DNA of 11,122 nt from Oculatellaceae cyanobacterium bins.114. GTDB lineage: Bacteria; Cyanobacteriota; Cyanobacteriia; Elainellales; Elainellaceae. Under the pieces are notes generated by a model that was not told where the DNA came from, made no database searches, and worked only from the letters and a program-made list of their open reading frames with translations. Numbering within the stretch: position 1 is the first letter of the stretch; each line of letters begins with the position of its first letter. Shown here piece by piece: positions 3,205-8,098 of this stretch. Location of the stretch: NCBI GenBank assembly GCA_033764315.1, contig JANRJA010000071.1, positions 1 to 11,122 of the forward strand, given 5' to 3'. Made by a program: the position numbers and the translations under genes.

Positions 3205-4158
3205 TCACGAAGCAATCTTCCAATAATTGCGATGCCATTTTAAGGCATCAATTCTCGGTTGATACTCTAGTTGAGTTGGCATCAGGATTTGGTTTCCATG
3301 AAAGTCTCGGATTGACTTTGTAGCTATTGGAGTCTCTTCATAAAAGCGATCGTTAGGTACAACAATTCTGTAGCTGTCATCGATGCCAAACCAACCGTGG
3401 TCAAACGCCCAATGATGGTTTTTGCAGAGAGAAATACCATTATCAAAGCGATCGTCCCAAAATTCAGAAAACGGCTTGATGTGTGCGCCATCTACAATAT
3501 TCTGATTATCCTGGCTAATCACTTTTAGTTTACAGAAAACGCAACGCTGTTTGTAGAGAGAGACGACCACTCTTCTAAACGCTGCATTTCTGATAAATAT
3601 TTTCTCTTCATCCTTTAAATCTTCTATCTTATAAACTGCTCCCCCTTGTTCAGCCAGTTTACGCTGGATGTTTTCAAATTCGTCCACTTCATAGAGTTTT
3701 TGAAGCTGAATCTCTTGATGAGGAAACCATGTTTGAATTAAGATACTTGCAAATTGAAGTCGTGCGGTAGGAGATTGCAATAGCTCAAATAGGTTAGGAT
3801 CGGTATAAGCGTATCTCACCGCATTTCGCAGAACCGATAAGCTTGGTTTGATAGAGGAAAGGTTTCCTTCATAGCTCATATTAGGAGTCAAGTGCCAAAA
3901 TTTATCGCCTGTTAAATGAAAGAACGGAAGCGAAATATTTGACTGATGATGGGTTGTGACTAAATTAGACCAGTACTTTAAAAAGGTAGCAATTAGCTCT
4001 GGAGAAAGATAAACCTGGTTGCTTTCAATCTTTCTCTGTTCAATTAATTCTATAACCGCTAGCAAGAGGATTGGTTTGTGCGGAGCGTTCACTCCCCTAT
4101 TTCGGTTAACATTGAGCTTTGCAAATTTTTTAGCGTAGTAATTAAAGTCTTTTTTCAT
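3205..4158 (-). CDS. SBD-HNH endonuclease: putative phosphorothioated-DNA-binding type IV restriction enzyme
   Basis: N-terminal sulfur-binding-domain motifs APHKPILLL and LPFFHL. C-terminal HNH domain: RNAAFRR, CVFC, DGAHIKPFS, NGISLCKNHHWAFD. Confidence 0.9.
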   Translation of the reverse strand: MKKDFNYYAKKFAKLNVNRNRGVNAPHKPILLLAVIELIEQRKIESNQVYLSPELIATFLKYWSNLVTTHHQSNISLPFFHLTGDKFWHLTPNMSYEGNLSSIKPSLSVLRNAVRYAYTDPNLFELLQSPTARLQFASILIQTWFPHQEIQLQKLYEVDEFENIQRKLAEQGGAVYKIEDLKDEEKIFIRNAAFRRVVVSLYKQRCVFCKLKVISQDNQNIVDGAHIKPFSEFWDDRFDNGISLCKNHHWAFDHGWFGIDDSYRIVVPNDRFYEETPIATKSIRDFHGNQILMPTQLEYQPRIDALKWHRNYWKIAS

Positions 4159-4159
4159 C

Positions 4160-4555
4160 GCTTGTGATTAAGTCCCTCACAGCCATCTCCAAAATACGCG
4201 AGGGAATCTTAAAATCTATCAGCTTGTTAGATTTCTTTAACCAAGTGTTTGCATTTGATTTACCAGTGCTTAGTCAATACTGCCAACACTACTGGGACTA
4301 AAGCCTTGCTGATCTCATAGGGCACGCTCAAAACGGAAGATTGTCATTGTCACAACCTGGAAATTCTTTAAAGAGATGGCGCGATATCACAAGCTACTCG
4401 ATCGTAATCAGAATGGAACTTTATCTCAAGTTGATAACGCTCAAAAAGTTTGCGTAGTGGGTTTCTCAGGTAGAGGGCTTGTGAGATGGTTTTTGCCATC
4501 TCAAGGGCATGTTGTTGCAAGCGTTGACAGACTCACCTGAAAGATCTCTCAGGTA
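4160..4555. repeat. Dense cluster of short direct and inverted repeats upstream of the HNH gene
   Basis: GCTTGTGA..GCCATCTC at 4160-4189 and 4477-4502, with an inverted copy at 4373-4394. Also TGAGATGG-N6-CCATCTCA 4482-4503, TTATC-N7-GATAA 4421-4437, ACCTGA-N8-TCAGGT 4535-4554, and TCTCAGGTA at 4464 and 4547. Confidence 0.6.
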
Positions 4556-4631
4556 AAAGGTTTAGCCTTTATCGGGTTTCTATATTGGACTCCGGCAACG
4601 GGGTTGTAATGGGCGTCAGCGCAAAGCGAAC

Positions 4632-4785
4632 TAGAAACGACACAGATCAAAATAGAAACGACGCAGTCAAAAACTCAATTGGCACTACCAAAAATAGAAA
4701 CGACGCAGATCAAAATAGAAACGACGCAATCAAAAATTAAAGCGATATAGCCAAAAGTAGAAATGACGCATATCAAAATAGAAAT
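4632..4785 (+). repeat. 21-bp tandem repeat array (7 full units plus a partial) with 63-bp higher-order period
   Basis: Units start at 4632, 4653, 4674, 4695, 4716, 4737, 4758 and 4779. Consensus TAGAAACGACGCAGATCAAAA. Units 3 and 6 are divergent but exactly 21 bp. Confidence 0.92.
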
Positions 4786-4937
4786 TTAAAGACTCACCAC
4801 TGGGAATTACCGACTCTTGTTTCATCATAAGGAGACTTTTCAGTATCGATACGGAGTTGGAACTGCTTAAACTTTGGGCATTGATAAACTAACGCATTAG
4901 TTGGTGCATTTAGCTGAATCAAAAGGACCCAATCATA

Positions 4938-5387
4938 ATGAATCAAACAATCGATGCAACACTGACTCAGCAGGAAATGGAAGATATCATTACTGCTCTT
5001 AAAACCATTCGTGAGCAACTGCCCTTAGTGGGTTTATCCACGCAAGAGCGACGCCAGATCACCAAAATGGGGCGCAAAGCTCAAACCTTTACCGTTCGAG
5101 CCCTCAACATGGCAACACAACACCATGACATCATGCCTCGCCACTTAAATGTTGAAGAAGCCCGACGCGACTTAGCCTTATTTGAGGCGTTGAATCCTAT
5201 TCTGCAAGCGGTGAATCACTTACGCGAGTTGCTCGAAGATACACAAATAGTGGCAGGCAGTGAAGCGTATGCTGCTGCACGCTTGGCGTATAACTCGGCC
5301 AAGATGTCTGGAAAAAACTTGGGGCTAGATGAGATTATTGATGATCTCTCTCAGCAGTTTCGTCGCACTCGCAAACCTCAGGAATAA
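4938..5387 (+). CDS. Conserved all-helical hypothetical protein (149 aa)
   Basis: AGGA SD about 11 nt upstream of the ATG. Motifs LSxxERRxxxKMG, MPxHLNVEExRRD and LEDTxxxAGSEAYxAAxxxY resemble, from memory, an uncharacterised family found in cyanobacteria and Bacteroidota. Confidence 0.88.
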   Translation: MNQTIDATLTQQEMEDIITALKTIREQLPLVGLSTQERRQITKMGRKAQTFTVRALNMATQHHDIMPRHLNVEEARRDLALFEALNPILQAVNHLRELLEDTQIVAGSEAYAAARLAYNSAKMSGKNLGLDEIIDDLSQQFRRTRKPQE

Positions 5388-5753: not shown

Positions 5754-6511
5754 TCGTTCAATTCTAATACTCTCTTGAGCCAGCAGAGAGCACTCTCGAC
5801 ATCTGCAACTTGCTCACAACAGGGGACAGGTGGACGTTGCACCATCACCACAGGAATGCTTAACTCTCGTGCAGCAATAATCTTGGCATAGGTGGCATCA
5901 CCACCACTATTTTTACTAACGATCGCCCTTATCTCATACTGTTGTAATAGCGATCGCTCCTCGTCGAGTGAAAAAGGTCCCCGTTCTAATAACACTGTTC
6001 CAGGGGGGAGGGGTGCATGGGGTGAAGGTGGCTCAATCATTCGCATCAGAAACCAGAGATCTTGTAAATAGGCGTAGACATGGAGTTCTTGCCGACCCAC
6101 GGTGAGAAACACACGCTGAGCTAATGTGGGTAAAATCGCTGCTGCTGCGGCATGACTGTTTACTTCAATCCAGTGATTTGCTGATGCAGGTTTCCATGCA
6201 GGACGAAGCAGCATGACCTGGGGAATACCAACTGCGGTGGCAGCAGCAACGGCATTAAACGAAATTTGGGCGGCAAAGGGATGGGTCGCATCAATCAACA
6301 CATCAATGCTGTGTTGGCGCAGATACTCTGTGAGTCCTGCTATTCCTCCAAAGTTGCCAATTCGCGTTTTTTCAAACGATATCAGGGGTTGACGAGTCCG
6401 ACCTGCCAGTGAAGCAATCACCTCCATGCCTGATATTGCCGCTGCTTGTATGGCTAAATCGACCGCGTCACTCGTTCCACCGAGAATCAATACTCGCTTT
6501 TTTTTAGTCAT
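5750..6511 (-). CDS. cbiJ: Cobalt-precorrin-6A reductase CbiJ/CobK (alternative TTG start at 6523)
   Basis: ILGGTSDA, SLAGRT, IDATHPFAAQIS, LRPAW, FLTVGRQ, RGPF, SKNSGG...KIIAARELSIPVVMVQRP. Confidence 0.96.
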   Translation of the reverse strand: MTKKKRVLILGGTSDAVDLAIQAAAISGMEVIASLAGRTRQPLISFEKTRIGNFGGIAGLTEYLRQHSIDVLIDATHPFAAQISFNAVAAATAVGIPQVMLLRPAWKPASANHWIEVNSHAAAAAILPTLAQRVFLTVGRQELHVYAYLQDLWFLMRMIEPPSPHAPLPPGTVLLERGPFSLDEERSLLQQYEIRAIVSKNSGGDATYAKIIAARELSIPVVMVQRPPVPCCEQVADVESALCWLKRVLELND

Positions 6512-8003: not shown

Positions 8004-8019
8004 CCCCTCCCAACCTCCC
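8004..8019 (+). repeat. C-rich small dispersed repeat, with an inverted copy at 9470-9485
   Basis: CCCCTCCCAACCTCCC is the exact reverse complement of GGGAGGTTGGGAGGGG at 9470-9485. Confidence 0.65.
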
Positions 8020-8079
8020 CGTGGCAACTACTCTTCCAGATTGGGTGTAGGGTTGTTGCATGCGTATGAAAACCAGGCA

Positions 8080-8098
8080 TTGGGGGAGACTCCCCCAA
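8080..8098. repeat. G/C-run hairpin (dispersed repeat or terminator-like)
   Basis: TTGGGGGA-gac-TCCCCCAA perfect 8-bp stem. Confidence 0.55.

Follow-up and report, generated by a model that had tools for sequence, protein, structure and literature searches.

A 21-nt direct-repeat array precedes an uncharacterized gene

Contig JANRJA010000071.1 of Oculatellaceae cyanobacterium bins.114, analyzed here in its entirety as an 11,122-nt window (contig C24 of a 6.6-Mb genome in 251 contigs, whose relatives are filamentous cyanobacteria), carries a tandem array of 21-nt direct repeats that lies 153 nt upstream of a gene for a 149-amino acid (aa) protein and on the same strand (Table 1). A preliminary description of this DNA had quoted eight repeat units, a co-oriented gene about 150 bp past the array and a divergent restriction nuclease on its other side. 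We found all eight units in the sequence, the gene as a plus-strand open reading frame (ORF), and, on the minus strand, an ORF with an HNH_2 domain that resembles phosphorothioate-dependent restriction endonucleases.

Full 21-mers begin at positions 4632, 4653, 4674, 4695, 4716, 4737 and 4758, and a partial last unit (tagaaat) begins at 4779. Tandem Repeats Finder described 4632-4784 both as a repeat of period 21 (7.3 copies, 63% matches, score 109) and as one of period 63 (2.4 copies, 85% matches, score 213), and the autocorrelation of the array peaks at lags of 63, 42 and 21 (z of 5.6, 3.2 and 3.1). When the first 63-nt block is compared with the second, unit A has a single changed position among its 21, as does unit B, against 10 of 21 for unit X (Fisher p 1.2e-4), so that the two X units share their length and 11 of 21 bases; the sameness of A and B beside the divergence of X could reflect either selection or homogenization among like units. 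The A-B-X superstructure noticed in the preliminary description is thus real in this array. Because orthologous arrays lack a regular every-third-unit pattern, however, it is, judging by these relatives, a local duplication of a three-unit block and not a rule.

In order to ask how specific the unit is to this locus, we searched both strands of the 6.6-Mb genome with up to 4 mismatches allowed. The unit occurs 5 times inside the array and twice elsewhere, each time with 4 mismatches, and these two are chance hits; the full array searched against its own genome gave one match. The unit is locus-specific, and the array is more than chance.

Table 1. Array, gene and related features in the window and in the rest of the genome.
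Feature	Location	Strand	Basis or remark
Tandem array, 7.3 direct 21-nt units, consensus TAGAAACGACGCAGATCAAAA, 63-nt A-B-X block duplicated	4632..4785	+	Tandem Repeats Finder, autocorrelation
Partial array unit, inverted, 37 nt ahead of the first direct unit; GTTTCTATATTGGACTCCG complementary to CGCAGATCAAAATAGAAAC	4576..4594	+	Repeat search
Leader between array and gene	4786..4937	+	Alignment of six orthologous leaders
Gene for 149-aa family A protein, all-helical, predicted intertwined homodimer	4938..5387	+	ORF, database searches, structure prediction
HNH_2 protein, 317 aa	3205..4158	-	HNH_2 E 1.6e-11; NF045808 E 1e-36, 126.5 bits vs 180-bit cut-off
Family A copies followed by a methyltransferase	L043:5357-7507 (C206), L044:2440-4314 (C50), L045:6628-8382 (C196)		Two N6_N4_Mtase, one MmeI-type
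Family B copies in the genome	C212:8299-8745, C155:32819-33256, C134:41209-41631, C225:789-1226, C113:51847-52242		Array upstream of each
Orphan arrays, period a multiple of 21	C8:21073-21317, C160:303-482, C84:14236-14415, C174:10270-10576, C241:386-658 and 12201-12359
Further orphan arrays, period a multiple of 21	C41:13796-13967, C246:4775-4930, C12:15190-15512

The gene product is a predicted all-helical homodimer

The gene for the 149-aa protein, of a family here called A, had been described as uncharacterized, and this was confirmed: we obtained no match by sequence in Pfam, NCBIfam, PADLOC, PHROGs or the PDB, and a protein atlas yielded nothing usable. The family is large, with 3,799 representatives of 50%-identity clusters at E <= 0.001, and its proteins measure 145-165 aa; the search for fused longer forms found none, which is weak evidence. 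The N-terminal third of the protein, in particular its first ~30 residues, varies among members, and the C-terminal half (DT..GSEAYAAAR.AY) is nearly invariant.

An AlphaFold2 model of the 149-aa protein (mean predicted local distance difference test score, pLDDT, 88.8) is all-helical, with helices at residues 11-27, 35-40, 46-61, 72-124 (53 residues) and 131-141. Prediction as a homodimer scored 0.82 in three runs, with the best control at 0.00. The mark used in this comparison was reached by 20 of 30 proteins solved as one-chain pairs and by 1 of 23 solved as single chains. Contact agreement between the runs was at least 96%, and the pLDDT of the partner was at least 86. The model pairs the two long helices in antiparallel fashion, with their crossing at residue 92, and also places residues 5-9 in the interface. 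The family A protein is predicted to be an intertwined all-helical homodimer, the scores being those of model confidence and no measurement.

Arrays with 21-nt-based periods recur beside family A genes

To determine whether the pairing recurs, we collected 279 stretches encoding a family A relative and kept 80 loci, one genome per species. An array was scored automatically when its period was a multiple of 21, or within 1 of one (21n), and it lay within 700 bp of the gene. By this rule 64 of the 80 loci carry an array, and a partly overlapping set gave 21-22 of 34. The side on which the array lies depends on relatedness. At the 26 loci whose protein is at least 53% identical to that of the window, arrays are upstream in 21 (at 160-335 bp), downstream in 0 and absent from 5, one of which has no upstream sequence. 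At the 54 loci with identity of 52% or less, arrays are upstream in 5, downstream in 38 (at 3-493 bp, mostly 50-175) and absent from 11. At least 3 of the 5 upstream arrays of distant homologues look spurious (two 1.6-kb period-126 repeats and one two-copy 22-mer). The upstream position described earlier is therefore not general, the array lying downstream of the gene in the more distant half of the family.

The pairing is also evident among the seven family A copies of the genome itself, 5 of which have an array with a period of 21, 42, 63 or 84 nt within 600 bp. Four of the six paralogues are so accompanied (C206, C187, C196 and C79); of the other two, C50 shows weak autocorrelation downstream at 21, 42 and 63 (z of 2.7, 2.4 and 2.3), which Tandem Repeats Finder missed, and C213 ends at a contig edge. 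The C196 locus also contains a long GC-rich inverted repeat (GTAGGGTGGGC...GCCCACCCTAC; L045:6081-6152) between its main array and a further unit at ~6158-6200, which has the appearance of a small mobile hairpin element that entered the array. Among the genomes of 60 relatives, 24 have family A (25 of 61 when the window's own is included).

Outside the cyanobacteria, we found family A in 7 of 61 Acidobacteriota genomes from the order of a Pyrinomonadaceae assembly. Of the 11 loci there, 7 carry an array of 21/42/63 nt at 70-350 bp downstream, and one more carries it at 691 bp; the remainder comprise one 20/40-nt array, one 17/33-nt array and one locus with none. The base composition there is quite different (GC 0.39-0.63), and repeat sequences are unrelated between clades, the period alone being common. 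In a plasmid collection the sole family A match (40% identity over 95% of the protein) is on plasmid pTs417 of Candidatus Thiodictyon syntrophicum, a purple sulfur gammaproteobacterium, where the gene (L184:2986-3453) lies between polyamine and pyruvate kinase genes; a phage collection contained no family A homologue. Inspection of homologue flanks for arrays of 21 or 7n nt thus bore out the proposal of a recurring module of non-coding array and protein, with 21n arrays at 64 of 80 loci plus 7 of 11 in Acidobacteriota, and the arrays are not intact heptad-coding ORFs (see below).

The 21-nt period marks two unrelated gene families

Proximity to a family A gene strongly enriches for the 21-nt period. 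Among tandem arrays within 700 bp of family A genes 94 of 108 have a 21n period, compared with 12 of 37 lying farther than 700 bp away at the same loci and 93 of 677 in the whole genome of the window, in which 122 of 677 arrays are heptamer-based.

Behind other 21n arrays we found a second family, B, of proteins of ~145 aa (ORFs of 130-148 aa in this genome) that start MPRPKRSS. All 5 family B copies of the genome (Table 1) have a 21/42/63/84-nt-period array upstream within 600 bp. In relatives such an array lies 120-515 bp upstream at 22 of 30 loci, one of the 22 having an 83-nt period only. Within 700 bp of family B genes 21 of 28 arrays have a 21n period, bringing the 21n share near genes of the two families to 75-87%, against 14% genome-wide. 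At E <= 0.001 family B numbers 1,553 members; no Pfam domain is found in any of them, and their source names read 'hypothetical protein' apart from a few stray automatic labels such as YoxC or YukE; Pfam, PADLOC and PHROGs gave nothing usable. Cultured carriers of these modules include Nodosilinea nodulosa PCC 7104, Chlorogloeopsis fritschii PCC 6912/9212, and Nostoc or Leptolyngbya FACHB strains. The family B model comprises helices at 9-24 and 36-89 (54 residues) and a tail that is disordered and basic; the pI (isoelectric point) of family B is 9.7. Foldseek and a wide structural search with the model returned generic helical hairpins only (best E 1.9 and best Z 7.0). We detected no kinship between families A and B (hhalign probability 0.8%). 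Both occur in 18 of 60 relatives, A alone in 6, B alone in 3 and neither in 33, a tally in which kin are not independent. The plasmid collection yielded one family B match, from Kovacikia.

The genome also contains ~18 intergenic 21n arrays with neither an A nor a B gene nearby, and we found no remnant of either family beside them. These orphan arrays adjoin TIR, NACHT and Roc-COR genes, HepT-MNT pairs and ordinary genes. Those listed in Table 1 sit by TIR/NACHT/STAND genes, the arrays on C8 and C160 lying just downstream of HepT-MNT toxin-antitoxin pairs, and many of them have GAGTTCAGAAC-like motifs, as do downstream arrays of Nostoc and Acidobacteria family A genes. Two other orphan arrays (C40:5377-5592 and C172:74237-74353) are built from the 21-nt unit of the array beside the C155 family B copy. 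They lie, respectively, ~400 nt upstream of an LRR-Roc-COR gene and ~330 nt upstream of a gene for an IS200-like transposase, and share the same orientation; neither has a B gene or remnant nearby.

Unit core, spacing and leader are conserved among orthologues

The unit core GAAWCGAC is kept in all 15 orthologous loci, from several genera, that we pooled for a matrix, and it repeats at 21-nt steps in orthologous arrays. In most of the 17 loci scanned, 178-188 nt separate the gene-proximal core from the ATG, and copy number varies at the gene-distal end. By blastn, similarity of the window to its orthologues begins at 4808-4839 and the flanks beyond the module show none; nor are the flanks of the window module repeated elsewhere in its genome.

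Alignment of six leaders revealed blocks kept in orthologues at ~4799-4814, ~4837-4858 and ~4877-4913. The middle block contains a palindrome, GTATCGATAC (4843-4852; I5), that resembles a unit and lies 83 nt past the last core, within 1 nt of the 21-nt register of the array, with a unit-like match at -95. Four inverted repeats identified by repeat search (I1-I4) are 79-92% complementary to direct units, and a 13-mer matching the inverted partial unit with up to 3 substitutions occurs 329-405 nt before the ATG at 10 of 16 orthologous loci searched, 4 of the 10 having at most 2 substitutions. The 149-aa ORF is preceded by a Shine-Dalgarno-like AAAGGA at 4922-4927. In a consensus scan no promoter was called ahead of the array, within it or in the leader, nor any terminator in array or leader; the only two promoter-like sites of the scan are inside the gene (4962-4990) and on the opposite strand (4429-4401). 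Judged from the sequence, the combination of direct units, an inverted partial unit and an in-register palindromic unit-like site is a layout typical of protein-bound DNA, and the conserved leader looks like a promoter region.

The array lacks the marks of a coding sequence, a CRISPR or a heptamer repeat

Since 21 nt equal 7 codons, we asked whether the array encodes a heptad-repeat peptide. As described earlier, all six frames are closed by stops (7, 1, 1, 4, 3 and 1) and one reads as heptads: frame +2 yields ETTQIKIETTQSK. Frames +1 and +2, with one stop each, are both heptad-like, and a 51-codon ORF (4585-4740), whose product has no Pfam match, spans part of the array. Among 21 related arrays, however, an open frame is lacking in 4 and otherwise differs in strand and phase from array to array; the reading phase shifts internally in the orthologous array of L013, and three frames are open simultaneously in Nostoc arrays. 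Variation between units showed no codon periodicity, with 1 of 67 arrays at p < 0.05 and a median p of 0.55 (2 of 69 were dropped for loss of register). The suggestion that the array is a decayed coiled-coil ORF, or that its orthologues are intact ones, is therefore not sustained.

The idea of a repeat/spacer-like RNA fared no better. The X units match the other units in length and are diverged repeats, regular spacers are missing from orthologous arrays, no ORF of the window has a cas domain and Rfam returned no CRISPR match, arguing against a CRISPR array. No RNA structure was predicted (fold z +0.62, -0.44 and -0.56), and the array is unstructured and A-rich. The only Rfam hit in the window, away from the array, is a sub-threshold match to COG2908 at 8004-8085, between cbiD and a DctP-type binding-protein gene (24 bits, with the gathering score at 58.7; E 0.0085), and is probably chance. 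A heptamer repeat of the cyanobacterial kind was likewise rejected, as Tandem Repeats Finder lists periods of 21 and 63 only, with no 7-nt sub-period. Phased A-tracts, which the preliminary description had put forward as a means of bending, do not hold as a general principle, the arrays of paralogues and of family B being mostly without them. We found no family-wide strand composition skew across four groups, and a simple terminator scan of 34 downstream-type loci was inconsistent.

Genomic surroundings of the module

The neighbors of the module in the window are the HNH nuclease, whose match to NCBIfam NF045808 falls below the cut-off, and cbiJ. Clustering of the flanks of the 80 family A loci revealed no conserved neighbor gene, and the HNH nuclease in particular is not one. 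Modules in the window's own genome lie mostly among restriction/modification, toxin-antitoxin, IS200 transposase and STAND/NACHT genes. A DNA methyltransferase gene follows 3 of the 7 family A copies on the same strand; we considered a DNA methylase as a general partner and rejected it, since one is found at only 2 of 138 loci elsewhere. The window further contains a 23-nt tandem repeat at 2807-2856 (2.4 copies, 83% matches) and minus-strand ORFs of 236, 132 and 91 aa without a Pfam family (307-1017, 1322-1720 and 1744-2019).

Discussion

We are confident that the array and the gene constitute a real, conserved two-part module. The pairing extends across paralogues, orthologues and two phyla, and to a second, unrelated family of small proteins; the 21n period is kept while the repeat sequence turns over completely; and orthologues of one group retain the unit core and its spacing from the gene where the flanking genes differ.

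As to what the module does, we tentatively favor, at somewhat less than even probability, an array that serves as a platform of iterated binding sites for the dimeric protein encoded next to it, which would control itself through the leader site, DNA being a likelier substrate than RNA. The array would be a row of head-to-tail candidate sites, and the protein that occupies them would be the symmetric, intertwined helical dimer encoded by the gene itself. These sites would most likely be read on double-stranded DNA, where 21 bp make two helical turns and would place successive sites on one face, so that cooperative loading could build a nucleoprotein filament or wrapped complex beside the gene. 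Through the single conserved unit-like palindrome, in register in the leader, the same protein may control its own promoter. The variable N-terminal third might set the specificity for each locus's own unit, and the nearly invariant C-terminal half might make the dimer or contact a common partner.

Several lines of evidence weigh against this binding-platform reading. With regard to the loci, an array went undetected at 16 of 80 family A and 8 of 30 family B loci; the Thiodictyon plasmid locus has no tandem array and no 21-nt autocorrelation on either side; the ~18 orphan arrays stand without either gene; and, as kin are not independent, there were fewer separate events than the locus counts suggest. 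As few as 3-27 nt separate the stop codon from the array in the distant subfamily, which would fit a 3' untranslated region equally well. With regard to the protein, family A is not basic (pI 6.4), its model matches no recognized DNA-binding fold (Foldseek best E 0.52), and a wide structural search gave generic helical hairpins only (best Z 6.0). Its N-terminal pattern (I-D-A-T-L-T, helix, G-L-S) resembles a ribbon-helix-helix (RHH) motif by eye, yet a match to RHH_8 was obtained for 1 of 62 members, at E 0.058, and no PDB profile matched, so that sequence lent an RHH N-terminus no support. With regard to the unit, dyad symmetry is lacking in that of the window (best arm 2 nt) and significant in 0 of 19 arrays of group A1, a point that counts against binding of this kind because a symmetric dimer is expected on palindromes. 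Elsewhere dyads were found in 0 of 14 family B arrays, 4 of 50 in group A2 and 2 of 8 in Acidobacteria, a minority of downstream-type arrays.

It is possible, though on balance we think it unlikely, that these loci represent a new class of sequence-programmed nucleoprotein or ribonucleoprotein modules, in which at least two unrelated families of small dimeric helical proteins have private arrays and the 21-nt period is the only universal; such a class would number thousands of members in cyanobacteria and Acidobacteriota. They might then act as self-marking scaffolds in defence, foreign-DNA silencing or chromosome organization and would not be ordinary autoregulated genes, the fold requiring the period and not the sequence.

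Should the array act instead as RNA, its repeated single-stranded motifs would bind the protein, either as feedback on its own message, as a sponge or as a pair akin to a type III toxin-antitoxin system, and the array would belong to the transcript of the gene, at its 5' end as a long leader in the close subfamily and family B and in its 3' untranslated region in the distant one, or would be transcribed separately. We regard this as an improbable but serious alternative. Within each clade array and gene are always co-oriented, on either side and always close, as an interaction at the RNA level in untranslated regions would explain; downstream arrays begin 3-175 nt past the stop with no consistent terminator between; and the unstructured, A-rich array is what a single-stranded binding track would be. 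The module is moreover multi-copy, patchy across genomes and often broken by stops, its company of restriction, toxin-antitoxin, STAND and IS200 genes in this genome is that of small selfish or defence modules, and the two extra arrays of the C155 unit share an orientation upstream of plus-strand genes. Against RNA stand the consensus scan, which called neither a promoter upstream of the array nor a terminator, the lack of a family-wide strand skew in the four groups, and the conserved leader between array and gene, with its likeness to a promoter region.

Comparison with known type III systems bears on the same question. In ToxIN, CptIN and TenpIN, near-identical repeats of 34-45 nt that fold into a pseudoknot are followed by a terminator and then by a toxin gene of the ToxN/AbiQ fold. 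The module shares with them a co-oriented repeat array upstream of a gene for a protein of ~150-170 aa, multiple copies, a patchy distribution and defence or mobile neighborhoods. Its units, however, are 21 nt long, 63% matching in the window and 63-90% alike overall, and unstructured (z +0.62); no terminator was found; the family A protein is all-helical (pLDDT 88.8), has no Pfam or PADLOC match and is not a ToxN-like nuclease; and the array lies downstream in 38 of 54 distant homologues.

Less probable again, in our estimation, is a cis-acting DNA element that does without the neighboring protein, whether a platform for some other host factor, a stretch of intrinsically curved or stiff DNA by which expression is tuned or insulated, or a minisatellite prone to slippage and favored by the tendency of these genomes to 7n repeats. 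Arrays of 21n period are common in this genome and heptamer-based ones frequent, the orphan arrays lie by unrelated genes, and a common host factor could explain why the feature accompanies two unrelated families that co-occur in relatives. Against an independent element stand the enrichment near these two families far above the genomic background, the persistence of the pairing in Acidobacteriota across GC 0.39-0.63, and a unit core that is conserved among orthologues whose flanks are not. The units moreover differ from locus to locus, each being unique in the genome, and a single shared factor would not read them all.

Cyanobacteria are known to carry heptamer tandem repeats, termed STRR. 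Intergenic repeats of TAACTGA are reported from Beggiatoaceae (PMC4679880). The module resembles both, which are abundant, as an intergenic direct repeat of 7n period in filamentous bacteria, and the window's genome is rich in such repeats. It differs in that its array has no 7-nt sub-period, its unit is locus-specific and it is tied to a particular gene family. A full-text literature search returned no description of such arrays or proteins; the tandem repeats discussed in PMC4143802 measure 736-973 bp.

We consider it very improbable that the module is what remains of a replicon or of a partition cassette, with iterons or a centromere and their binding protein, left by an integrated plasmid or mobile element, even though its genomic contexts are non-syntenic and its layout mirrors such cassettes, with ~21-bp direct repeats, a small gene, a partial repeat in inverted form and, near the putative promoter, a palindrome. 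The iteron arrays of pPS10, pSC101, R6K, P1 and F consist of direct repeats of ~17-22 bp beside the gene of an autoregulated initiator, with an inverted or palindromic partial repeat near the promoter. The 7.3 direct 21-nt repeats of the window likewise stand at about two helical turns beside a gene, with units that are system-specific in both cases. The window also has an inverted partial unit (4576-4594) and a palindromic unit-like site in the leader (4843-4852), where the consensus scan called no promoter. The predicted intertwined dimer, which would be obligate, is nonetheless no winged-helix Rep and belongs to no Pfam or NCBIfam family; there is no DnaA box (TTATCCACA or TTTTCCACA, up to 1 mismatch) in 4100-5000; and the module is chromosomal, may have its array downstream of the gene, and is present in 12 diverged copies per genome (seven A and five B).

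Partition systems offer a similar comparison: ParR on parC (R1, pSK41) and omega on heptad arrays (pSM19035) are small dimers that bind cooperatively to direct repeats beside their own gene and repress its promoter, the repeats sometimes being of mixed orientation. Here too the gene of a small predicted dimer lies beside a row of direct repeats. No ParM or ParA motor gene is adjacent, however, the 80 loci have no conserved neighbor, an RHH N-terminus is unsupported, and family A proteins, at 145-165 aa, have a helix of ~53 residues. The lack of an adjacent Rep gene, the single match per family in the plasmid collection, the absence of family A from the phage collection and the failure to find long fused forms speak further against a replicon origin. 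Least probable of all is a heptad-repeat coding sequence, whether decayed or still in use, given that its heptad-like frames are closed in the window and inconsistent among related arrays.

Returning to the binding platform that we favor, its significance would lie first in scale. The 3,799 cluster representatives of family A and the 1,553 proteins of family B have neither a domain nor a solved relative, and each member appears to come with a readable candidate partner site, providing a first handle on function. A period of two helical turns held across phyla while the sequence is free points to a geometric recognition rule, and such a rule could explain part of the long-standing puzzle of 7n repeats in filamentous cyanobacteria. 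If it is true that each protein reads only its own array, these loci would amount to a natural set of orthogonal protein-site pairs.

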